DNA of 64,000 nt from an uncultured Rickettsiales bacterium. GTDB taxonomy: Bacteria > Myxococcota_A > UBA796 > UBA9615. Positions 3,202 through 62,307 of this stretch are shown here, in pieces. The position numbers and the translations under genes are program-made. The stretch lies in assembly GCA_964512225.1 (NCBI GenBank), contig CAZEKB010000030.1:2374-66373 (forward strand), read 5' to 3'. Under the pieces are notes generated by a model. That model did not search any database. It worked only from the letters and a program-made list of their open reading frames with translations, and was not told the origin of the DNA. The stretch's first letter is position 1, and each line of letters opens with the position of its first letter.

Positions 3202-3354
3202 TCGGCTCCAGCAGGGTGCTGAAGAACGCCTCCCCTCGAACCGGGAGGGCTCGCCCCGCCGCAGCTCCGCTCGCTGCGCTCGCTGCCTGACGCCGCGCGG
3301 GGCGACCCTCCCGGCGGGTCGGCTCCTCGGTAGGACCCGAGACTTCCCGGCAGG

Positions 3355-3508
3355 CGGCAAGAACTCGGGCGTTTCACCGAACCGGGCCGGTTCTTGCCGG
3401 GGTTGCGGCAAGAACTCGGGCGTTTCACCGAACCCGGCCGGTTCTTGCCGGGGGTTGCGGCAAGAACTCCGCCGTTTCACCGAACCGGGGTGGGTTCTTC
3501 CGGGGCGC
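3355..3508. repeat. Tandem array of three ~51-52 bp hairpin units (REP/BIME-like), core AACTCGGGCGTTTCACCGAACCGGGC flanked by the inverted repeat GGCAAGAAC...GTTCTTGCC.
   Basis: Read directly: GCGGCAAGAACTCGGGCGTTTCACCGAACCGGGCCGGTTCTTGCCGGGGTT occurs three times, with the third copy degenerate. Each unit holds a 9-bp perfect inverted repeat. Spurious ORFs (3087..3428 -, 3394..3594 +, 3455..3661 +) read through it. Confidence 0.8.
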
Positions 3509-13838: not shown

Positions 13839-14849
13839 CTACAGGTGCTCGAAGTTGCAGTTCAGCATGTTGCAGGTCCGGGGGCAGTTGTGTGCCTCCC
13901 AGCGTCGGCGCTTGCTCTTCATGCTGTTCCACATCCAGGGGATCGGCTGCTTCAGGACGTGCCCCACGGGGGGCAGCCAGAAGCAGAGGAGCAGGTTTCC
14001 GTAGGGGTCGAGCGAGATGTCCGAGTGGCCCGCGTTGCACGGTAGACCGTTGCTCACGCTGGGCGATCGGAAGTACCTCTTCATTTCCTTCAGCTGACCG
14101 ACGGAGTTGCACACATGTCCATCGGCCTCCTTGATGGAGATCAGGTAGTCCAAGGCGTCGTCGAGCGCGGGAAGGTCTTCCTCACGCGGGAATAGCGGAG
14201 ACTTCACGAACCACTGGGGGTCGTACGTGCGACCGAAGTTGTTGAAGAGCGGCTGATAGACCACCTGATAGCCCCGCTCCAGGGTCCAGTCGGCCATCTG
14301 CTTCATCTCGGAGATCGATCGACGATTGATGATCATCGCGATCACCACGCGAGGCTTCTCGACCATGTCCACGAGGTCCAGCGTCCGCATCACCTTGTCG
14401 TATGTCCCGGCCTCACCCCTCACGTAGTCGTGAGTGGCCGCCGTCGACCCGTCGAGGCTCACGTAGAGGATGTCCAGACCGGCCCCCGCGAGCTGGTCGA
14501 TCTTCTTCGCATTGAAGAGCGTCGCGTTGGTATTGGACGTGACCGTAAAGCCGAGATCCGTCCCGTAGCGGATCAGCTCGATGAGGTCCTTCCTCAGGAA
14601 CGGCTCGCCGCCCGCGAAGTTCAGGCCCACGGGCCCGGCCCAGTCCGCCACCTGCTTGAAGATGCCCTTCCACTCGTTGGTCGTGAGCTCCTCGCCCGGC
14701 TTGATGCGCCAGATGTCGCACATGCGGCAGGGCAGGCAGCAGCGGTCCGTGATGCTCACGTGCATCTGCGTCGGCAGGCCGGGCGCCGCCCGGAGCTTCA
14801 GGGTCTCCGCCGCCGTGGAGGCGAACCTCGCCACGTCGTTCATGAACAT
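13839..14849 (-). CDS. Radical-SAM enzyme with C-terminal SPASM/twitch-type Cys cluster (336 aa).
   Basis: CxxxCxxC motif in ITDRCCLPCRMCD. The C-terminus reads CNSVGQ...CNAGHSDISLDPYGNLLLCFW...NCPRTCNMLNC. Local GC is about 57-60% by hand count. Confidence 0.85.
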   Translation of the reverse strand: MFMNDVARFASTAAETLKLRAAPGLPTQMHVSITDRCCLPCRMCDIWRIKPGEELTTNEWKGIFKQVADWAGPVGLNFAGGEPFLRKDLIELIRYGTDLGFTVTSNTNATLFNAKKIDQLAGAGLDILYVSLDGSTAATHDYVRGEAGTYDKVMRTLDLVDMVEKPRVVIAMIINRRSISEMKQMADWTLERGYQVVYQPLFNNFGRTYDPQWFVKSPLFPREEDLPALDDALDYLISIKEADGHVCNSVGQLKEMKRYFRSPSVSNGLPCNAGHSDISLDPYGNLLLCFWLPPVGHVLKQPIPWMWNSMKSKRRRWEAHNCPRTCNMLNCNFEHL

Positions 14850-14852
14850 GCT

Positions 14853-16115
14853 CTACGTCCCCTCCTCACGCGACCCGGTGCGGTCCTCGTAGACCTGGTC
14901 CCGGCCGGGGCCTCGGTAGACCTCCGGGTAGGGTCGCGCCCCGAAGGGTAGGCCCGGCACCGCGGGGATGTCGTCGCCGTCGAGGCCGCGCCCGGCGAGG
15001 AACTGGTCCACCTCGTCGCGCGTGATCCCCGAGTAGTTGACCGACGACGGGATGAAGCAGGTGCGACAGAAGTCCAGCTCCGAGTAGTCGCCGCGGGCCG
15101 TGAGCTGACGACGACGGTTGAGCACCGGCGAGTCGAGCCAGACCTTCGAGAAGGACGCGTCCGCCAGGGAGCCGACCACGAGGTGGTAGGTGTTGTCCCG
15201 GGTGCAGACGGTCACGCGCCCGTCCGACGCGATGGTGGGCGACTTGAAGAACCCCGAGCACGTCGTGAGCAGGGTGCGGGGGACCTCCGTCCCGACGCGA
15301 CGCTCGGCGTCCGGGTCGATGGGCGACCGGAGCCCCAGGGACGTCATCAGGTCGACGTACACCCGGTTCTGGCGGTCCTGCTCCTCGGGCGTGGGGCAGT
15401 CGAGGCTCTTGAGGAAGATGTAGTTCTCGGGACCGTGAGCGGGCACGTGGAAGCCGGTCGTCTCGATCGGCAGGCCCGCGTCCTCGTACGCCCTCACCCA
15501 GAAGTCGACGAACTCCGGAGCCTCCGCCGCGTTGACGTCCGAGACGATGAACTGCATCGCCAGCTTCGGCCGGCTGGCCCGGGCCGCCCCCTTGAGGCGG
15601 ACCATGCGCAGCGCGTTGCGGGTGGACTTCTCCATGGCATCCAGGCCCTTGATGACGTGGAACGTCTCGGGCCGGATCGCGTCCAGGGTCAGGTGCCAGA
15701 CCTGAGGGACCGAGCGGTCGTTGAGGACCGACCGAGCGATGTGCTCGCTCAGCGGGAAGGTATTGGTATGGACCTCGATCTTCCCGAAGATCTCTCCGTC
15801 GCCGCTGTGCTCCAGGACCGTGGCGTAGATCTCGGTGAACCGGGGGTGGGACAGCGGCTCGCCGAGCCAGAAGAGGATCAGGGCGTCGTACGTGAGCCCG
15901 GCGGCCGACAGATCCTGCATCAGCTCACGGACCATGCCCACCGGCATGTGCTCGTAGACCGCATAGTGCGGGTGCCCGTCGTCGGCCTCGCTCACGGCGC
16001 AGTGCCCGCACTTCAGCGGACACCGGTTCGTGACCTCGAGGACGAGGTAGCTCCCGGGCAGGTTGAGCTTGGCCACGTCGAGCCGTCGGCCGGCCGCTTC
16101 GAAGTGGGCGGTCAA
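14853..16115 (-). CDS. Radical-SAM/SPASM-domain enzyme (420 aa).
   Basis: CxxxCxxC motif in VTNRCPLKCGHCAV. C-terminal Cys-rich region: TTCSGFF...VTVCTRDNTYHLVVGS...DFCRTCFIPSS. Confidence 0.85.
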   Translation of the reverse strand: MTAHFEAAGRRLDVAKLNLPGSYLVLEVTNRCPLKCGHCAVSEADDGHPHYAVYEHMPVGMVRELMQDLSAAGLTYDALILFWLGEPLSHPRFTEIYATVLEHSGDGEIFGKIEVHTNTFPLSEHIARSVLNDRSVPQVWHLTLDAIRPETFHVIKGLDAMEKSTRNALRMVRLKGAARASRPKLAMQFIVSDVNAAEAPEFVDFWVRAYEDAGLPIETTGFHVPAHGPENYIFLKSLDCPTPEEQDRQNRVYVDLMTSLGLRSPIDPDAERRVGTEVPRTLLTTCSGFFKSPTIASDGRVTVCTRDNTYHLVVGSLADASFSKVWLDSPVLNRRRQLTARGDYSELDFCRTCFIPSSVNYSGITRDEVDQFLAGRGLDGDDIPAVPGLPFGARPYPEVYRGPGRDQVYEDRTGSREEGT

Positions 16116-31665: not shown

Positions 31666-31752
31666 GCCCCCCCCCGCAGGTCGCCGGTGACCCCTCCCCT
31701 CCACCTGGTGGGCGCCGATCTCCGGGCCCGAACGAGAGCGTCGCCTCTCTCG

Positions 31753-33228
31753 CTAACCGACCATCAGTCGCTGCCACCACGACTGCCTCAGCCCATCCTC
31801 GCCGCTCCTCAGCCAAGTGGCGAACTCACGCGGCGTCTCGACGACGACGATGTTGCCCTGCGCCTTCGCCTTGATGCGTGCGGGGAGCTTCGCCACGAAC
31901 CGATTGACCTCGTAGGACTGGTAGTTCTCAGCGAAGATGATCCGCTTGCGGTCCCGCCCCCATGAGCGGATCTCGGCCTTACCGAGCTGGATGGCATCGA
32001 CCCACTGGGTTCGACCCGAGTCGAACAGTTCCTGGATCGGCTGCCGGGGGAAGCACGCCGGAACCTCTCTGTGAGCCTGGTCGTACAGCTTCATGAAGAC
32101 CCGGCGTGCGGCGAGAAGATCATCGCCGTCGGTCACGTCCTGATCCGCGAGCTCTTTGAGATAGAGGAAGGAGAACCACTTGAAGATGTCGTTCGGCTGC
32201 TCGAGCACCGCTTTGAGGTGGTCCTTCGTCTCCGCGTTGTCGGGGAAGAGGACGTCGAAGTCGAGCATCCGCATCCGGCTGAACGCCCAGGTGTCGTTGG
32301 CCGTGGGCAGCTTATTGCTGGATACGATGATGGCCGGGAATACGCGCTCCTCGCTCCACCACTTCTCCCAGTACTCCTTGTAGACGCGCTCCAAGTCTCC
32401 CTTCTTCGAAGACAGGACGACGTCGTCGAACACCAGCGGGAACGTGGTGCGGGTCTGACCGAGACTCTGGATGTTCGCCTTCTTGAAGGCATCGTTGCCC
32501 AGGAGCCGCCAGCGCCGCCCCGTAAGCAGCCGGAGCGCGAACGTCAAGAACGTGGACTTGCCTGTGTGACTCGGCCCGTGGATGAAGAGGAACAAGGGCC
32601 CCCGCAGATCGACCTGACCGAAGCGCCTCCTCTTGAGCTTCATCAGCTCCGTGGCGAAGGGGGCCGACAGAATGCACAGCAAGGCCTCGAACATCGCCAT
32701 CTTGGCCCTCTTCGGGTAGAGGGAGCTTCCGAGGTCCACCGTTGCCAAGTAGTCCTCGATATTCCTGAGGGCTGCATCGAGTACTTCGGGTGTGGGCAGC
32801 GGCGCGGTGCGGCGGGTGTCCGTCTCCGAGTCGAGGCCCAGGTAGACCATCTGCCGCTCGAGATCGACTTGCATGGCCGGAACCCTTGTTCGACGACTTC
32901 GGAATCCGAGGAGGTCGGAACGGCGCAGTCGGACCGTCCCGTCGGGAGCCTCCGTCGCCTTGTACGGGGAGAGCGCCTGCAACGCTGCATCCTTCGCCTT
33001 CCGCGTTGCATCGCTGGGCAACGCGAATTCGATGATCTCCTCGGGAAGGGCCTGCCCGTCGTGCGGCACCAGCGCCTTCGTGGTCACTTCCTGGAGGGTC
33101 GCTTGCACCACGCGCATGACCTGCTCGTCGTCGCCCTCGGACAAGATCGCCTTCACCCACCGCTCCGCGATTGAGTGAGGCTGCTCGCTGCCGTCTCGGT
33201 CCGCCAGCAGCTCCCTCAAGTCTCCCAA
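31753..33228 (-). CDS. P-loop NTPase with SF3-helicase-like motifs (491 aa), function unknown, translationally coupled to the upstream PLD nuclease.
   Basis: ORF 31753..33228. Walker A PLFLFIHGPSHTGKSTF (the GPxxTGKS pattern of E1/Rep SF3 helicases), Walker B PLVFDDV, and motif-C-like AIIVSSNKLP. The start is TTG at 33228 (Shine-Dalgarno GAGG 6 nt upstream), or TTG at 33219 overlapping the PLD stop (TTGA). Hand-counted GC is about 60-63% against more than 70% in the flanks. The protein is Lys/Phe/Trp-rich. Confidence 0.8.
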   Translation of the reverse strand: MGDLRELLADRDGSEQPHSIAERWVKAILSEGDDEQVMRVVQATLQEVTTKALVPHDGQALPEEIIEFALPSDATRKAKDAALQALSPYKATEAPDGTVRLRRSDLLGFRSRRTRVPAMQVDLERQMVYLGLDSETDTRRTAPLPTPEVLDAALRNIEDYLATVDLGSSLYPKRAKMAMFEALLCILSAPFATELMKLKRRRFGQVDLRGPLFLFIHGPSHTGKSTFLTFALRLLTGRRWRLLGNDAFKKANIQSLGQTRTTFPLVFDDVVLSSKKGDLERVYKEYWEKWWSEERVFPAIIVSSNKLPTANDTWAFSRMRMLDFDVLFPDNAETKDHLKAVLEQPNDIFKWFSFLYLKELADQDVTDGDDLLAARRVFMKLYDQAHREVPACFPRQPIQELFDSGRTQWVDAIQLGKAEIRSWGRDRKRIIFAENYQSYEVNRFVAKLPARIKAKAQGNIVVVETPREFATWLRSGEDGLRQSWWQRLMVG

Positions 33229-33701
33229 GAAGGGCCTCGAGTGAGGTGGCGGTCGTAGCTCTTGAGAAGCCTTGCGAGGACGGGTGAATCGTCTGCGACA
33301 TCGTCCAGGTACCAGACGTAGTTGACCTGGTTGACTCGCCGGGCGGACTCCGTGAGGTTCGGGCTCCCTTGGATGATGCGGCGCTTCCCGTCACCCTCCA
33401 GGATGTAGAACTTCGTGTGCAGGCTCTTCTTCTTGGGGGAGTGCACTCGCAGCCTGCCCTCGGTCATGAGGACCCCGAGCTTCGCGACGAAGTCCGTGCC
33501 CTCCTTCGCCACATCCTGAACCTCCCGATTACTGAGGTTCTCGCCTACGACGACTTCGATGGACTCGTACCCGAGCTTCTCCATCCAATCGACGAGGGTC
33601 TTCGGGCTCGTCACGTAGGAGACGGCTTTCAGCCTCGTGAAGCCCTTGAAGAGGCCTTCGAAGTCCGCTCGTCTCTCGATCACTTTGTCCTTGAATTGCA
33701 T
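33216..33701 (-). CDS. Small phospholipase-D-superfamily (HKD) nuclease, single HKD motif (Nuc/BfiI-like, 161 aa).
   Basis: HKD motif HTKFYILEGDGKRRIIQGSPNLTESA, matching the pattern HxK(x4)D/E(x6)GSxN. ATG at 33701 with a strong Shine-Dalgarno sequence AGGAGGA 8 nt upstream. Its lower GC (roughly high-50s to 60%) matches the adjacent ATPase gene. Confidence 0.85.
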   Translation of the reverse strand: MQFKDKVIERRADFEGLFKGFTRLKAVSYVTSPKTLVDWMEKLGYESIEVVVGENLSNREVQDVAKEGTDFVAKLGVLMTEGRLRVHSPKKKSLHTKFYILEGDGKRRIIQGSPNLTESARRVNQVNYVWYLDDVADDSPVLARLLKSYDRHLTRGPSWET

Positions 33702-33790
33702 ACCGCGGTCCTCCTACACGTTCGACGGGACCCGCCCAGGGCTATTCAGCCCCGTGTCGCGCGCGCCTCCGGATCAGCCTACTGAGGGGC

Positions 33791-33807
33791 GGGACAGAAA
33801 CTGTCCC
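33791..33807. promoter_or_regulatory. Perfect hairpin/palindrome cGGGACAG-aaa-CTGTCCCg about 90 nt upstream of the PLD-nuclease start.
   Basis: Read directly: 8-bp stem and 3-nt loop. No gene ends just upstream on either strand, so it reads as a candidate operator or structured 5'-leader, not a terminator. Coordinates are +/-2. Confidence 0.3.
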
Positions 33808-33954
33808 GGGTAGCTCGCAGCCGCGTCGATCGAGGACCAACGACCAGAACGAGGCTCAGCTCAGGACTCCGGGAACCACCCGCGCGAGGCGTGTGACCAC
33901 CCCCACGAAGCGATGCGTGGCAGCGCCGGAGCGCCCACATCGCAGCGGCGAGAT

Positions 33955-34100
33955 GTCACCGAACCGGGGCAGTTCACCGAACCCGGCGGGTTTCTGCCGC
34001 CTTTGCGGCAACAACTCGGGCGTTTCACCGAACCGGGCGGGTTTCTGCCGCCTCTGCGGCAACAACTCGCGCGGTTCACCGAACCGGGCCGACCGGGCGC
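33955..34100. repeat. Second tandem array (about 3 units of ~51 bp) of the same hairpin repeat family as 3355..3508, sharing the core AACTCGGGCGTTTCACCGAACCGGGC.
   Basis: Read directly: ...GGCAACAACTCGGGCGTTTCACCGAACCGGGCGGGTTTCTGCCGCCTCTGC appears twice, plus partial copies. The imperfect inverted repeat GCGGCAACAAC/GTTTCTGCCGC has 9 of 11 positions paired. It lies in the divergent gap between the PLD gene (-) and the vWA lipoprotein gene (+). Spurious ORFs 33856..34161 and 33913.. read through it. Confidence 0.75.
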
Positions 34101-34159
34101 CGCGAAGCCCGCCGGGGCGGGCCTCGATCCTGCAGGCTCCCTCGGCGGAGGTCTTCATC

Positions 34160-35686
34160 ATGTCTCGTCCCTTCGGTCGTCCCCTTCCCTTCGCCCTGAT
34201 CGCTCTGATCGCCGCCGGGTGCCCCGCCTACGAGATGGACGAGGCCGGCTACGGCCGCGGGGGCGGGGGCGACGACGACGACGGCGCTTGGGGCGACGAC
34301 GACGACGACGACGACGACGGCCCCGACGACGAGGAGCCCACCGAGCCGCCCGAGGACGGCCTCGACGACGTGTGCGAGGGCGCCGCGGACGTACCGGTCA
34401 CGCTGTACATGTCCGCCGACGACTCCAACTCCCAGGCCGCGCCCGTGCTCGCGCGCCACATGATCGACGCGGGCATGCGCTCGCCCGGCCAGGGGGCGCC
34501 GTACGAGTTCCTCAACTACTACGACTTCGACCTCGCGCCCGCGGAACCGGGCAGCGTCCGGCTCGAGGCGCAGATGCGGCCGATCGTGGGCACGGAGGGG
34601 GGCTACTCGGTCCTCGTCGCGGCGGTGGCCGAAGAGCGCACGATCGAAGAGCGGGCAGACCTCAACCTCGTGATGAGCATCGACCGCTCCTGCTCGATGG
34701 GCGGCCTGCCGATCGACCTCGCGAAGCAGTCGATGGAGCAGATGACCGCCTCCCTGCGCGAAGGCGACATCGTCTCGATCGTGGAGTGGAGCGCGCAGGC
34801 GGCGACCATCATCGACGGCCACGTCGTCCAGGGTGCGTCCGACGCCACGCTCGTGCAGATCATCCGGGGCATCAGCGAGGGGGGCGGCACGGACCTGCAC
34901 AACGGCCTGGTCCACGCCTACGAGGTGGCCGCGTCCCACGCGTCGCCCGAGCGCCTCAGCCGGGTGGTGCTGCTGAGCGACGGGGGCGCGAACCTCGGCC
35001 AGACGTCCGCCGAGATCATCGGGGCCGCCGCGGACGACTCGGAGGCCGCGGGCACGTACCTCGTGGGCGTCGGCGCGAGCACGCCCGGCAACTACGCCCA
35101 CGACCTCATGAACGAGGTCACCGACATGGGCAAGGGCTCGTACATCTACATCGACGACCAGGACGAGGCCGAGCACCAGTTCCGGGGCCGCCGCTTCATC
35201 TCCAACCTCGACGTGGCCGCGCTGGATGTGCGCCTCGCGGTCGAGGTCCCCGCGGGGTTCGTCATCGACGAGTTCCACGGCGAGGAGATCAGCAAGAACC
35301 CCGAGGACGTGGAGCCGCAGCACCTCGCGCCCAACGACTCGATGCAGTACCACTTCACCCTCGTGGACTGCCCCGAGGCGCCCGCCGAGCGCGACACGCG
35401 CTTCACCTTCACGATCACGTGGACCGACCCCGTCACCCGCGAGCAGCGCAGCGAAGAGCGCGACCTGCTCCTCGAGGACCTGCTCGGGGGCGACGTCCGC
35501 GCGCTGGTGAAGGCGGACGCCCTGGTCGCCTACGCGGAGGCGCTCCCCCGGGGGTCGCGGACGTCGGAGGATCTCGAGCGCATGGACGCGGCGCTGCAGG
35601 TGGTGCAGGAGGCCGTCCTGGCCTTCCCGCAGGACGCCGACCTCGCCGAAGTCCTCGACCTGCTCACGCGCACCCGCAACCTCTAA
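34160..35686 (+). CDS. vWA-domain lipoprotein (VIT-vWA-like), 508 aa, with an N-terminal poly-Asp tract.
   Basis: ATG at 34160 with the Shine-Dalgarno sequence GGAGG 8 nt upstream. Lipobox LIAAGCPA, then GGGGDDDDGAWGDDDDDDDDGPDDEEP. MIDAS motif DRSCSMGG, plus later vWA signatures (LLSDGGAN). Confidence 0.85.
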   Translation: MSRPFGRPLPFALIALIAAGCPAYEMDEAGYGRGGGGDDDDGAWGDDDDDDDDGPDDEEPTEPPEDGLDDVCEGAADVPVTLYMSADDSNSQAAPVLARHMIDAGMRSPGQGAPYEFLNYYDFDLAPAEPGSVRLEAQMRPIVGTEGGYSVLVAAVAEERTIEERADLNLVMSIDRSCSMGGLPIDLAKQSMEQMTASLREGDIVSIVEWSAQAATIIDGHVVQGASDATLVQIIRGISEGGGTDLHNGLVHAYEVAASHASPERLSRVVLLSDGGANLGQTSAEIIGAAADDSEAAGTYLVGVGASTPGNYAHDLMNEVTDMGKGSYIYIDDQDEAEHQFRGRRFISNLDVAALDVRLAVEVPAGFVIDEFHGEEISKNPEDVEPQHLAPNDSMQYHFTLVDCPEAPAERDTRFTFTITWTDPVTREQRSEERDLLLEDLLGGDVRALVKADALVAYAEALPRGSRTSEDLERMDAALQVVQEAVLAFPQDADLAEVLDLLTRTRNL

Positions 35687-49444: not shown

Positions 49445-50463
49445 GTCACGCGGACGCGCGTGAGCGGGTCCGGGATGTGCTCGATCGGGAACGTCACCGA
49501 GTTGGCGACCTTGTCGTAGGCCCACGTGCCGTCCTCGGCCTCCACGTCGTCGAGCCACACCTGCAGGGTGCTCTCGTCGGGCACGCGACGGAGGTAGAAG
49601 GAGCGCTTGAGGCCCGCGGCCTCGAGGCCCAGCTCCACGAGGAAGTCGGCCCAGTCGGTCGAGCAGATCGACCAGAAGTTGCCGCCCATGGCGTCGATGA
49701 CCTCGTGATAGGCCTCGCCGTACTGACCCTCGTTGTCGAGGACGCTGCAGCCGTTGGGCTCGTCGCCGACGATGCCCGTGAAGATGATCTGGTCCTGCCA
49801 GGTCCAGGGCCGCAGACCCTGGAGCCACGGGATGTACTCGTCCGGGCCGATCCCGTCGCAGTCGGGGCCGAGCCCGAACGGGGGCACGAAGCTGCCGCTG
49901 TCGTCCTCGTCCGTGACGATGATGACCGACAGGAGGGCGTCGGGCCGGGTGAACCCGTCGTTCCAGCCGCCCTGGCCGGCGCGGGCGTTGAGCGCGGTGA
50001 ACGAGGCCTGCAGCCCCATCTCGCAGCTGCCGCTGCCGCCGGACCCCAGGCGAGCCATCTCGTTGAACGTGCCCACGGGATCGGGCGTATCCCGGGAGAT
50101 CCAGCGGACCCCGTTCTTCTCCACGAGGCGGCCCTGCTCGGAGTCGCTCATGCTGCTGAGATCGCCGTCCACGACGCCGATGTGATAGTCGACGGTCGAG
50201 CCGATGAAGTTGCTGATGAAGCCGTCGAAGTTGGTGGCCAGCTCGTCCTGCTCGCCCTCCATGGAGCACGAGCTGTCCACCACGAAGAGGATGTCCGACT
50301 GGGCGACGGTGCGCTGCTGGTACGCGTCCTCCCACTCCGTGGGGCCGAGCGCGTCGGGCTGCTCGAAGAACGCCGGCTCTTCGTAGATCTGCCGCAGCTC
50401 GTTGTCCGAACAGGCGACCAGGGCGGTGGCCGCGAGGAGGAGCGAGAGGGTGCGTGCGTTCAT
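49402..50463 (-). CDS. vWA-domain lipoprotein (353 aa).
   Basis: MNARTLSLLLAATALVACSD. MIDAS motif ILFVVDSSCSMEGE, and IIVTDEDDSG. Confidence 0.8.
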   Translation of the reverse strand: MNARTLSLLLAATALVACSDNELRQIYEEPAFFEQPDALGPTEWEDAYQQRTVAQSDILFVVDSSCSMEGEQDELATNFDGFISNFIGSTVDYHIGVVDGDLSSMSDSEQGRLVEKNGVRWISRDTPDPVGTFNEMARLGSGGSGSCEMGLQASFTALNARAGQGGWNDGFTRPDALLSVIIVTDEDDSGSFVPPFGLGPDCDGIGPDEYIPWLQGLRPWTWQDQIIFTGIVGDEPNGCSVLDNEGQYGEAYHEVIDAMGGNFWSICSTDWADFLVELGLEAAGLKRSFYLRRVPDESTLQVWLDDVEAEDGTWAYDKVANSVTFPIEHIPDPLTRVRVTYTLIEDQGAAVVE

Positions 50464-50472
50464 GCGGGAGCC

Positions 50473-51807
50473 CTAGTTTGAGATGTCGATCGAGCCGCCG
50501 ATGTTCTGTTCGCCGATCGCGTTCACGAGGCCCTGCGCCTGCTCGTTGGTGAGCTGCTGGTTGTTCGTGACCTGGAAGTTGCCGCCCACGGTCGCCAGGC
50601 CGTGCAGCCCGAGCAGGGTGTTGAGGCTGTCGTTGTTGTCGATGATCAGGTCCGCGGCGATGCTGGTCATGCCCGCCAAGCCGTTCACGTCGACGATCTG
50701 CTCGGCGTTTCGCAGCCGCATCGTGCCCCCGACGGTGGCCACCTGGGACAGGGGCAGCGTGGTGTCGAGGAAGTCCTCGATGATGAGGTCGCCCACCACC
50801 GACCGGAGGTTGTTCAGGCCCGTGATCTCGCTGCTCGCCCCGAACCCCCGGATCTCGAGCTTGCCCTGGATGACGGACACGCCCGCGAACGCCGAATAGG
50901 CCATCGAGTTGCCGCCCTGCACGTAGAGCCCCACGGGCAGGTTGGCGATCTGGGGGAAGCCCGCGAACGAGATCAGGTTCGGGTTGTTCGCGATCCGGAT
51001 CTCGTACCCGGTGCTCCCGATCGGGATCTCCGTGGCGATCTGCGCGAGCTCGTTGAACCCGGCGACCGCGTTCAGCCCCGCGTTGTTCGTGATCTCGATG
51101 ATCCCGCCCAACGTCTGCAGGCTCGGCGGCCCCGAGAAGTTGTTCAGCACCTCGTTGTTGTCGAGGATCAGGTCGCCGCCGATGCTCGTGACGCCGAGCA
51201 GGCCCGTGGTGTCCGCGAGCTGGCTGTTGCTCACGATGATCATGCCCTCGCCGACCACCTCGAGGTTGTTCAGGCCGGTGAGGCTCTGCAGGGAGTGGTT
51301 CTGTTCGACGCGGAGCTCACCGCCGACCGTGCCCAGCGCGGCGAGGTTGGAGATGTTGGCGAGCGCGAAGTTCCGCTCCAGCCGCAGGGACCCCCCGATG
51401 TACTCCAGCCCCTGGAGGCCGTCGAGCGTGACCAGCGACTGGTTCTCGAAGAGCCACACGAAGCCGCTGACGCCGCACAGGCAGTCGAGGCCCTCGAGCG
51501 TGGTGAGGTTGAGTCCGCTGATCCCGAGGTTGCCGTCGACGGCGTCGTAGTCGGCGCAGAAGGCCTCGAAGTCGCTGGGCGAGCTCAAGGGTCCGAAAGC
51601 CAGCTCGCCGCGGAAGACACGGTCGCCATCGAGGCAGCTGCCCGTGCCGTCGTCGTCGTCCGTCGCGTCGTCATCGTCCGTACCGTCGTCGTCGTCGACC
51701 GCATCGTCGTCGTCCGAGCCGCGACCGTCCGTCGGGCAGCCCGTGAGGAGAACCACGAGGGCGCCCGAACCGAACAGGGCAGCAAAGCGCAACAAACCGC
51801 GAATCAT
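50473..51807 (-). CDS. Lipoprotein with leucine-rich / receptor-L-domain-like repeats and a poly-Asp linker.
   Basis: MIRGLLRFAALFGSGALVVLLTGCPTDG, then GSDDDDAVDDDDGTDDDDATDDDDGTGS. About 12 GxLxIxxN-type repeats. ATG at 51807; an alternative GTG lies at 51825. Confidence 0.7.
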   Translation of the reverse strand: MIRGLLRFAALFGSGALVVLLTGCPTDGRGSDDDDAVDDDDGTDDDDATDDDDGTGSCLDGDRVFRGELAFGPLSSPSDFEAFCADYDAVDGNLGISGLNLTTLEGLDCLCGVSGFVWLFENQSLVTLDGLQGLEYIGGSLRLERNFALANISNLAALGTVGGELRVEQNHSLQSLTGLNNLEVVGEGMIIVSNSQLADTTGLLGVTSIGGDLILDNNEVLNNFSGPPSLQTLGGIIEITNNAGLNAVAGFNELAQIATEIPIGSTGYEIRIANNPNLISFAGFPQIANLPVGLYVQGGNSMAYSAFAGVSVIQGKLEIRGFGASSEITGLNNLRSVVGDLIIEDFLDTTLPLSQVATVGGTMRLRNAEQIVDVNGLAGMTSIAADLIIDNNDSLNTLLGLHGLATVGGNFQVTNNQQLTNEQAQGLVNAIGEQNIGGSIDISN

Positions 51808-51901
51808 GAACAAACTCCGGAGCACATTCGGCGGACCCTACCAACGGCCTCGCGGTGGGCCAAGGCGCCATCCGCTCCCGGGCCATCGGCGGCCCGACGG
51901 G

Positions 51902-52933
51902 TCAGATCGTCGAATACCCCTGGGGGTGCGACGTGCGCCACGCCCAGGCGGAGGCGATCATGTCTTCGAGGCTGAACCGGGACGACCAACCGAGGTCCTC
52001 GCGGGCGCGCGTCGTGTCTGCCCAAACGGCGGCGGGATCGCCCGGACGCCGCGGGCCCTCCACGGCGGGGATGTCGATCCCGGTGACCCGCCGGGCCACG
52101 TCCACCACCTCGCGGACGCTCGTCCCCTTCCCCGTCCCGACGTTGCAGACGAACATCCCGCTCGGCGACTTCGCCGTGTACTCGAGCGCGGTCGCGTGGA
52201 CCTCGGCGAGGTCGGAGATGTGCACGTAGTCGCGGATCGCGGTGCCGTCCGGCGTGGGGTAGTCCGTCCCGGCGATCACCACCGGGCCCTTGCGACCCGC
52301 GGCCGCCTCCAATACGAGGGGGACGAGGTTCTCGAGCCGCCGCGCGTGCTCCCCGAGCTTCGCCGACGGGTGGGCGCCCACGGGGTTGAAGTACCGCAGC
52401 GCGGTCACCGACCAGCCGCCCTTCGCGACGAACTCCGACAGCAGCTCCTCGCACAGGATCTTCGTGCGCCCGTACGGGCTCTCGGGCCGCAGCGGGGCGT
52501 CCTCGTCGATCGGCGAGTGGTCCGGCGTGCCGTAGACGGACGCGGACGACGAGTAGACGAGCCGCCGCACCCCGGCCGCGCGCATCGCCTCGCACAGCGT
52601 GGCCGTGCCCCCCACGTTCACCCGCCAGTAGGCCTCGGGGCGGGCCACGGAGTCGGGCACGGACTTGAGCGCCGCGAAGTGCGCGACGGCGTCGAACCGC
52701 CGCCGGCTCAGGACGTTGTGGAGGAGCCGGAGGTCGCCGACGTCCCCGACGACGAGCTCGACGTCCCGACCTCCGAGCCGCGCGGCGGCGTGCACGGCCC
52801 CCGGGTGCCCGTTGCTGAGGTCGTCGATGACGACGGCGTCCCAGCCCTGCTGGAGGAAGGCCACCACGCAGTGCGACCCGATGTAACCCGCGCCGCCGGT
52901 GACGAGAACGCGGGGTCGAAGAACGTCCGGCAT
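51902..52933 (-). CDS. galE: UDP-glucose 4-epimerase GalE (343 aa).
   Basis: Start MPDVLRPRVLVTGGAGYIGSH. Catalytic region YGRTKILCEE (YxxxK). Full-length GalE pattern. Confidence 0.9.
   Translation of the reverse strand: MPDVLRPRVLVTGGAGYIGSHCVVAFLQQGWDAVVIDDLSNGHPGAVHAAARLGGRDVELVVGDVGDLRLLHNVLSRRRFDAVAHFAALKSVPDSVARPEAYWRVNVGGTATLCEAMRAAGVRRLVYSSSASVYGTPDHSPIDEDAPLRPESPYGRTKILCEELLSEFVAKGGWSVTALRYFNPVGAHPSAKLGEHARRLENLVPLVLEAAAGRKGPVVIAGTDYPTPDGTAIRDYVHISDLAEVHATALEYTAKSPSGMFVCNVGTGKGTSVREVVDVARRVTGIDIPAVEGPRRPGDPAAVWADTTRAREDLGWSSRFSLEDMIASAWAWRTSHPQGYSTI

Positions 52934-59919: not shown

Positions 59920-62307
<2,388 letters not shown>

Follow-up and report, generated by a model that had tools for sequence, protein, structure and literature searches.

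A PLD nuclease–helicase gene of family PF27394, very probably split by a frameshift, in a low-GC island of an uncultured bacterium

Enzymes of the phospholipase D (PLD) superfamily with a single HKD motif per chain, such as Nuc and BfiI, pair to form one active site. Motors of helicase superfamilies 1 and 2 (SF1 and SF2) are already known in PLD nuclease–motor enzymes of restriction and defence, and systems combining a nuclease with a nucleoside triphosphatase (NTPase), PLD-type nucleases included, are an established class of bacterial defence (bioRxiv 10.1101/2025.07.10.664194). For two such enzymes, SauUSI and MtsD, it was shown that the PLD domains dimerise into one active site under ATPase control and that cutting is ATP-dependent (bioRxiv 10.64898/2026.09.23.753747). 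Among the replicative helicases of mobile genetic elements, Cch and the SaPIbov-type Rep are MCM-like self-loading helicases of superfamily 6 (SF6), and the Reps of SaPI1 and SaPI5 belong to superfamily 3 (SF3) (PMC9371898). Here we analyse a locus on the minus strand of a 64,000-nucleotide (nt) stretch, called the window below, from an uncultured bacterium (positions 2,374 to 66,373 of contig CAZEKB010000030.1, assembly GCA_964512225.1). Its two overlapping open reading frames (ORFs), of 161 and 491 amino acids (aa), had been described in an earlier note as a translationally coupled module of a PLD nuclease and an NTPase. Comparison with homologues makes it almost certain that they are one split gene of the Pfam family PF27394.

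Relation of the two reading frames to family PF27394

The coordinates, motifs, TTG start and 13-nt overlap given for the pair were all reproduced, while the two-gene reading gave way once relatives were examined. The homologues found with the 491-aa ORF as query were 641–658 aa long, matching 161 + 491. The same ORF (P0001) has a precomputed match to PF27394 "Aq_aa27", and phmmer found eight members with E-values from 5.5e-94 to 5.7e-65. A profile search extended the family to at least 345 members, nearly all of them single polypeptides of 640–660 aa (nearly all of the 120 members listed were fused), and an exhaustive search of a 50%-identity library gave 844 representatives at E <= 1e-3. The expectation that homologues of the two parts would travel together was borne out, with the two parts joined in one polypeptide.

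The junction between the two parts was examined in 44 fused genes. It is continuous in the family and reads H-x-x-x-C-S-L-F-M-G-D-L-x-E-L. At the window junction, frame 0 reads DRHLTRG(PSWET-stop) and the -1 frame reads (SR)PFLGDLRELL, and together they match the family junction. The reconstructed fusion aligned full length with the family at 34–44% identity, with a one-residue gap at the junction. Because both frames are colinear with the fused junction, the overlap (33216-33228) can be read as the trace left by an indel of net -1 within 33229-33236. The 161-aa ORF would then be native from residue 1 to about 155 and close with a short tail read out of frame, whose last residues are SWET. In the AlphaFold2 model the lesion falls at the domain boundary: the last PLD-domain helix lies on one side of it and the linker helix on the other. 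At the split site no X XXY YYZ heptamer was found and the longest homopolymer was CCC, so programmed -1 frameshifting is without support.

At least seven samples of two projects contain the locus sequence, on at least 20 contigs in all; since the same sequence recurs in so many contigs and samples, it is real and not an assembly error. Eight aligned copies were 100.000% identical over up to 2749 nt, and the population carrying the locus is clonal. The cluster variants of the window gene differed solely in start-codon annotation; one gene caller had chosen the second TTG, giving a 488-aa product. We also noticed a 423-aa protein (P0010; L016 7073-7301, ENA ERZ23498668 scaffold_14816) in which a phosphodiesterase-like N-terminus is followed by 65 residues that are 100% identical to the C-terminal end of the NTPase. 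Its match to the window (31724-31952) comprises the terminal 229 nt only, at the contig end, and it is probably an assembly chimera and less likely a rearranged variant.

An independent split was seen in a divergent member (L065 466-2497, JGI 3300038620), where one extra C stands directly before the conserved junction ATG. Here a 203-aa PLD ORF overlaps a 482-aa helicase ORF by 29 nt; the case is known from a single contig. It was the sole true second split among the NTPase-only representatives checked: P0232 (L066) was an in-frame fused gene with a miscalled start, and P0221 (L073), 36% identical, was explained by a contig end.

The family is already catalogued, by Pfam and by NCBI, and its function is uncharacterised. 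Its Pfam name was taken from an Aquifex aeolicus ORF, presumably on plasmid ece1. No description of it emerged from literature searches on aq_aa27, PF27394 and the combination of PLD with an SF3 or replicative helicase. The earlier statement that the combination matches no named system is right as far as PADLOC-DB v2 is concerned, and the family already has an entry in Pfam. NCBI names its members "phospholipase D family protein" or "tyrosyl-DNA phosphodiesterase", the latter standing in RefSeq on haloarchaeal members (e.g. NZ_CP147876.1, NZ_CP024045.1 and NZ_CP119781.1). This label is probably over-specific, as it reflects a weak Tdp1-type PLD similarity and ignores a helicase module of 490 aa.

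Domains, composition and genomic surroundings

The HKD motif of the first ORF reads H95-T-K97-FYIL-E102 ... G112-S-P-N115, and its H, K, S and N do not vary among 73 sequences; there is one such motif per chain. Profiles of Pfam, NCBIfam, PHROGs and PADLOC gave only sub-threshold matches on the two ORFs. Pfam PLDc_2 reached 19.1 bits on the 161-aa ORF against a cutoff of 27, and the weak PADLOC and NCBIfam matches of this ORF, to ZacB (1.1e-4), DrmC (5e-4) and DpdK, ranged from 1e-4 to 0.06 and covered the HKD region only. The NTPase ORF had no match in PADLOC-DB v2.0.0 (2023), and hmmsearch with the family profile against PDB sequences returned nothing but a P-loop match to FtsE (E 0.14). Within the family, PF09565 (RE_NgoFVII) matches some members and PF06087 weakly matches many.

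AlphaFold2 models were built with the 73-sequence alignment; the fused protein reached a predicted local distance difference test score (pLDDT) of 87.6 and a predicted template modelling score (pTM) of 0.78, and the NTPase ORF alone 88.5 and 0.86. With the PLD domain, Foldseek found the NgoAVII R-protein (4rct) as the best match (E 2.6e-5, 22% identity) and SauUSI as the second; Zucchini and Tdp1 were also matched (Tdp1 with E ~8e-3), and the probability was 1.0 for NgoAVII R, Zucchini and Tdp1. These matches support the earlier assignment of the first ORF as a predicted single-HKD PLD nuclease domain.

The model of the 491-aa fragment shows a helical linker, a small alpha/beta domain, an ATPase resembling AAA+ replicative helicases and a C-terminal alpha/beta domain. 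The ATPase carries Walker A GPSHTGKS, Walker B LVFDD, the motif KEYWEKWW and motif C IIVSSN, with R476 (numbering of the fused protein) as a candidate arginine finger. Its nearest folds are Cch and SaPIbov Rep, at a sequence identity of 11–12%, and matches among the viral models of BFVD were phage primase-helicases of the DUF927, P4, D5 and NrS-1 types. The second ORF is thus supported by its predicted fold as a replicative AAA+ helicase-like NTPase of the viral or mobile-element type. The NTPase had been called SF3-like; that label comes near without fitting exactly, the nearest folds being of the MCM/SF6 kind (PMC9371898). The primase or origin-binding head usual in replicative helicases of mobile elements is replaced here by an HKD nuclease.

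The reported dip in GC content was confirmed. The locus (1949 nt) has 62.2% GC; in 1164 equally long, non-overlapping windows the value is 71.4 +/- 2.5% (z = -3.7 for the locus), and no other stretch of the 64 kb is as low in GC. Across ~31700-33800 the GC fraction is 0.59-0.65, compared with 0.70-0.78 in the flanks. GC at third codon positions is 0.82 and 0.86 in the two ORFs against 0.95-0.96 in three neighbouring genes; since GC at the first and second positions is lower too, the dip is partly a matter of amino-acid composition. The gene looks foreign in composition yet already largely adapted to its host. Composition and context show it to be a horizontally acquired, solitary single-gene island. 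Milder dips (0.66-0.67, window mean 0.71) were seen at 14001-16000, 50001-52000 and 60001-62000.

Both neighbours, a ricin-lectin/M60 peptidase and a vWA protein, lie on the plus strand, opposite to the locus, and the upstream gap is 458 bp, as had been noted. The window contains no tRNA gene and no Rfam match. Within +/-10 kb there is no integrase, methyltransferase, phage gene or gene of an integrative and conjugative element, which bears out the earlier view that the locus has no integrase, methyltransferase or tRNA nearby; the locus is not embedded in a prophage or conjugative element. No flanking direct or terminal repeats were found around the island, and no consensus promoter or terminator at the locus. 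The perfect palindrome and the repeat array described in the upstream gap are both present. The palindrome does not appear in the inverted-repeat output of an automated repeat search of 33650-34250; it is not followed by a T-run, i.e. it is not terminator-like, and it may be an operator or regulator binding site. The repeat array lies outside the low-GC island, and because a related array recurs elsewhere in the window we regard the two as a dispersed intergenic repeat of the host, of the repetitive extragenic palindromic (REP)-like kind. Positions of these features are given in Table 1.

Table 1. Features of the locus and of related loci. Positions refer to the window unless another locus is named; locus numbers (L) are ours.
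Feature	Position	Strand	Description
N-terminal fragment ORF	33216..33701	-	ATG start; 161 aa, HTKFYILEGDGKRRIIQGSPN; predicted complete single-HKD PLD nuclease domain
C-terminal fragment ORF	31753..33228	-	TTG start; 491 aa, or 488 aa if from TTG 33219
Probable frameshift site	33229..33236	-	net -1 nt (1-nt or 4-nt deletion) in the inter-domain linker; from three-frame translation and alignment with fused homologues
Candidate restart signals of the second fragment	33216..33238	-	GAGG (33238-33235) 6 nt before TTG (33228-33226); second TTG (33219-33217) overlaps the PLD stop TGA (33218-33216) as TTGA; by reading of the sequence
Ribosome-binding site AGGAGG	33715-33710	-	8 nt before ATG (33701-33699); by reading of the sequence
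Palindrome	33790..33808	-	perfect 8-3-8, cGGGACAG-ttt-CTGTCCCg, cGGGACAGtttCTGTCCCg; ~90 nt upstream of the start codon
Low-GC island	31700..33800	.	~62% GC; this gene alone inside; no flanking direct repeats, tRNA or integrase
Tandem array, upstream gap	33962-34089		51-nt unit, ~2.5 copies; core AACTCGGGCGTTTCACCGAACCGGGC shared with the next array; internal GC-rich hairpin
Related tandem array	3354-3489		51-nt unit, ~2.5 copies; same core; internal GC-rich hairpin
Type IIG enzyme beside a family gene	L027 6-2270		
Type IIG enzyme beside a family gene	L029 3496-6597		
Type IIG enzyme beside a family gene	L048 6478-9852		
Type IIG enzyme beside a family gene	L070 6874-9972		

In 185,579 species genomes we found 48 loci of the family, one per genome, most of them in Dehalococcoidia and Elusimicrobiota, with sporadic loci in Bacillota, Ignavibacteriales, Gemmatimonadaceae, WOR-3, Paceibacterota, Actinomycetota, Bacteroidota and Thermoplasmatota archaea. 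The gene is also carried by 23 plasmids, mostly haloarchaeal megaplasmids, where it is annotated as "tyrosyl-DNA phosphodiesterase" or "PLD family protein". No member was found in IMG/VR or among GenBank phages, and a viral origin was rejected on this ground. Similarly, 150 neighbouring ORFs from 27 loci contained no conserved partner gene.

Several neighbourhoods are rich in defence genes. The island at L070 (1-21971) holds SIR2_2, an SMC/AAA_23 ATPase, ParE, a Type IIG restriction-modification (RM) enzyme, HEPN_AbiU2, FRG and DruA together with a DruE-like helicase of 1851 aa; the Type IIG enzyme, MmeI/Type ISP-like and 1032 aa long, ends 29 nt before the family gene. Other copies adjoin AbiEii and MNT nucleotidyltransferase toxin-antitoxin genes (L069) or a DUF3427 PLD-helicase, Fic and CcdA (L003), and one (L029) is preceded by a Type IIG enzyme and followed by an SF1-helicase-PLD gene. 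A metagenome-assembled genome of Dehalococcoidales carries an insert of three genes, HicB, HicA and the family gene, with argJ on one side and argB/argD/argG on the other (L068 9486-12019); it clearly exemplifies a small accessory insertion into an operon of housekeeping genes. Haloarchaeal plasmid copies lie near helicase and nuclease clusters, one of them beside an Mre11/Rad50/NurA/HerA-like cluster. At 4 of ~35 loci, in different taxa, a Type IIG (MmeI/Eco57I/Type ISP_C) RM enzyme stands immediately upstream on the same strand. For at least two of these four, PADLOC gave full-length matches to its Type IIG models (E = 0); as complete stand-alone RM enzymes they suggest co-location in islands more than partnership.

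The family decays often. An Elusimicrobia copy has lost PLD residues ~30-140, the HKD core (L064 3677-5404), a truncated fragment lies directly downstream of a transposase of the insertion sequence IS3 type (L067 6420-8891), a further copy has a premature stop at motif C (L073 16-900), and the split at L065 was described above.

Possible function and rival explanations

On balance, the explanation that fits best as a whole, and which we hold to be somewhat probable, is that of a frameshift-split, horizontally acquired PLD nuclease–helicase gene acting on invading DNA. For the role in defence or against mobile elements taken by itself, the chances are about even; such a role had been proposed earlier, and the contexts of the homologues make it plausible. 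The most likely function appears to be that of a self-contained ATP-dependent nuclease-helicase. The invariance of its two catalytic centres in all family members aligned means that selection acts on the one activity as well as the other. Relatives of the helicase module form rings that load themselves on DNA (PMC9371898). By analogy, the module would oligomerise and load on DNA like these structural relatives. As each chain carries one HKD motif, the PLD domains would have to pair, and two PLD domains of neighbouring protomers would do so to form the active site. Cutting would be licensed or gated by assembly on DNA, with invading DNA as the putative target. In the window, the split gene would give a 161-aa nuclease fragment and a helicase fragment of 488 or 491 aa that could restart at a TTG.

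Several points weigh against this explanation. The link to defence is guilt by association from neighbouring genes, without a controlled enrichment statistic; many of the neighbours are housekeeping genes, the window copy has no defence neighbours, and no PADLOC model matched the helicase part. For oligomeric state, DNA loading and the pairing of PLD domains the explanation draws on relatives. Both restart codons are weak TTGs, and selection after the split is not measurable because the eight aligned copies are 100% identical.

Whether the split copy still works is the question on which the nearest rivals turn. We consider it quite possible that it is still functional, with a chance a little short of even; that it is a young pseudogene is a weaker but serious possibility, and for the rest the distinction may not be meaningful, e.g. 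where function is partial. The pseudogene explanation, to which as an account of the whole locus we give a likewise tentative place, sees what is left of a nuclease-helicase gene that was costly or toxic, was recently inactivated, is now decaying and no longer has a function. It is favoured by the frameshift itself, by TTGs as the only restart codons, by the solitary position without partner genes and by the decay of other copies (PLD core deleted, IS-disrupted and truncated, or prematurely stopped). It fits less well with the state of the sequence. There is one lesion in 1.95 kb, located at the one place that leaves both domains intact, and the strong AGGAGG is kept. All 61 columns that are invariant in the 73-sequence alignment, which includes the window copy, show the family residue, among them H95, K97, S113, N115, K382, D426/D427, N463 and R476. 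Of 180 columns conserved among the remaining 72 sequences, the window copy deviates in 38, mostly conservatively; intact divergent members deviate in 37-41, and divergence is thus not in excess. The identical sequence in several samples of two projects also speaks against decay, although a clonal population would explain it too. If the fragments do work, they might also represent a genuine two-subunit system, i.e. separate and translationally coupled PLD nuclease and NTPase genes forming a defence module, with an adaptive or tolerated split. That the split falls exactly between the last PLD helix and the linker helix would suit such a system, as would the TTGA stop/start overlap, the GAGG before the first TTG and the intact catalytic and invariant residues in both halves. 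An independent frameshift struck this junction in L065, where the conserved ATG would be the restart codon, and the NTPase of L065 forms a separate representative in the 50%-identity library; in addition, many known nuclease-NTPase systems consist of two genes (bioRxiv 10.1101/2025.07.10.664194). We nevertheless regard it as rather unlikely, if hardly more so than the pseudogene. The fused state of nearly all relatives stands against it, and the colinear junction with its short out-of-frame PLD tail indicates a recent lesion, not an evolved gene boundary. The other NTPase-only proteins proved to be a miscalled start and a contig end, and L065 is a single contig. An SD-like (Shine-Dalgarno) motif precedes the junction Met in only 3 of the 44 fused genes, compared with 15% at control Met codons, and is missing in the other 41; internal initiation as a family trait was rejected for this reason.

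Two further explanations concern the role of the whole family, and both appear far less probable. The gene could encode an initiator or transposase of the rolling-circle type in which an HKD nuclease replaces the HUH endonuclease and is joined to a captured self-loading replicative helicase. On this reading each solitary 2-kb island would be a mobile element of minimal size, nicking would proceed via a covalent phosphohistidine and the helicase would unwind. PLD enzymes do act via a covalent phosphohistidine intermediate (bioRxiv 10.1101/2025.07.10.664194), the best folds are initiator-helicases of mobile elements and phage primase-helicases, and the order nuclease, linker, helicase, C-terminal domain parallels that of Rep proteins (cf. 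HUH-Rep with SF3, and Helitron RepHel). Plasmids carry the family too, and it is found in small insertions within operons of housekeeping genes. In SaPI Reps a C-terminal winged helix binds the iterons (PMC9371898); tandem repeats or iterons within 600 nt of 35 family genes occurred at 5 loci against ~3 expected, which is no enrichment, and the array in the window is a host repeat. Together with the single copy in each of the 48 genomes, the lack of flanking direct or terminal repeats and of IMG/VR or GenBank phage matches, and the plasmids (21 of the 23 typed as non-mobilizable, and those listed 99-540 kb in size and presumably with replication genes of their own), this makes the initiator highly improbable. 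A DNA-repair enzyme, in which a Tdp1-like phosphodiesterase and a helicase would remove protein-DNA adducts or process blocked ends, is hardly more credible. It draws on the weak PF06087 matches in many members, on Tdp1 among the Foldseek matches and on the haloarchaeal copy beside the Mre11/Rad50 cluster; nuclease-type PLDs match better, Tdp1 has two HKN motifs per chain against one HKD here, and a patchy, plasmid- or island-borne and often decaying distribution is unlike that of a core repair gene.

If the preferred explanation of a defence enzyme is correct, PLD nuclease–motor enzymes would gain a new type of motor, a ring-forming replicative helicase captured from mobile elements, and this would be another immunity built from the parasites' own replication machinery. 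The family is directly testable, being a single gene with cultured hosts (Natrinema pellirubrum DSM 15624; Haloplanus and Halobaculum plasmids), and the window copy and L065 are natural splits at the domain boundary that offer a ready test of nuclease and motor in trans. For annotation, the lesson is that this apparent "operon" is almost certainly a frameshifted gene.

Comparison with known systems

NgoAVII and CglI are ATP-dependent PLD restriction enzymes with a cognate methyltransferase; their R-protein has a B3-like DNA-binding domain, and its N/H partner is an SF2-type helicase-like ATPase. The PLD domain of the window protein is structurally closest to this R-protein; the 161-aa PLD ORF has no extra domain, the ATPase is AAA+ and not SF2, and no methyltransferase is encoded nearby. 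McrBC consists of the AAA+ GTPase McrB and the PD-(D/E)xK nuclease McrC. Here the nuclease is a PLD and not a PD-(D/E)xK enzyme, and Pfam, NCBIfam and PADLOC gave no McrB or McrC profile match. Both analogies, drawn in the earlier note, thus fail on defining features. Mokosh, Azaca, DISARM with DrmC and Dpd with DpdK share with the window protein the common logic of a PLD nuclease and an NTPase in anti-phage defence (bioRxiv 10.1101/2025.07.10.664194). Membership in any of them was rejected, since they have SF1/SF2 helicases and further components that are absent at the window locus. The same applies to PADLOC-DB v2.0.0 as a whole, given the NTPase result and the weak, motif-level PLD matches.

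SCCmec Cch and SaPIbov Rep are the nearest helicase folds, at the low identity given above. These helicases lack a nuclease and work together with iteron origins in elements that replicate (PMC9371898), whereas the window protein has a fused PLD domain and its locus has no iterons or element genes. In SauUSI (Type IV restriction) and MtsD of MANTIS an N-terminal single-HKD PLD domain and an ATPase motor are likewise found in one chain. Their motor is SF2 helicase-like, in contrast to the AAA+ replicative-helicase module of the window protein. A target-recognition domain, SRA-type or other, is not recognisable in the window protein, and MtsABC partners are absent; MANTIS/Gao_RL, a four-gene system with PLD and SF2, was rejected accordingly. 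The window protein belongs with the members of PF27394, from which it differs in being split into 161 + 491 aa instead of forming a single polypeptide, and the architecture that it shares with them, a PLD nuclease and a Cch/Rep-like AAA+ helicase, is new within the known nuclease–motor theme.

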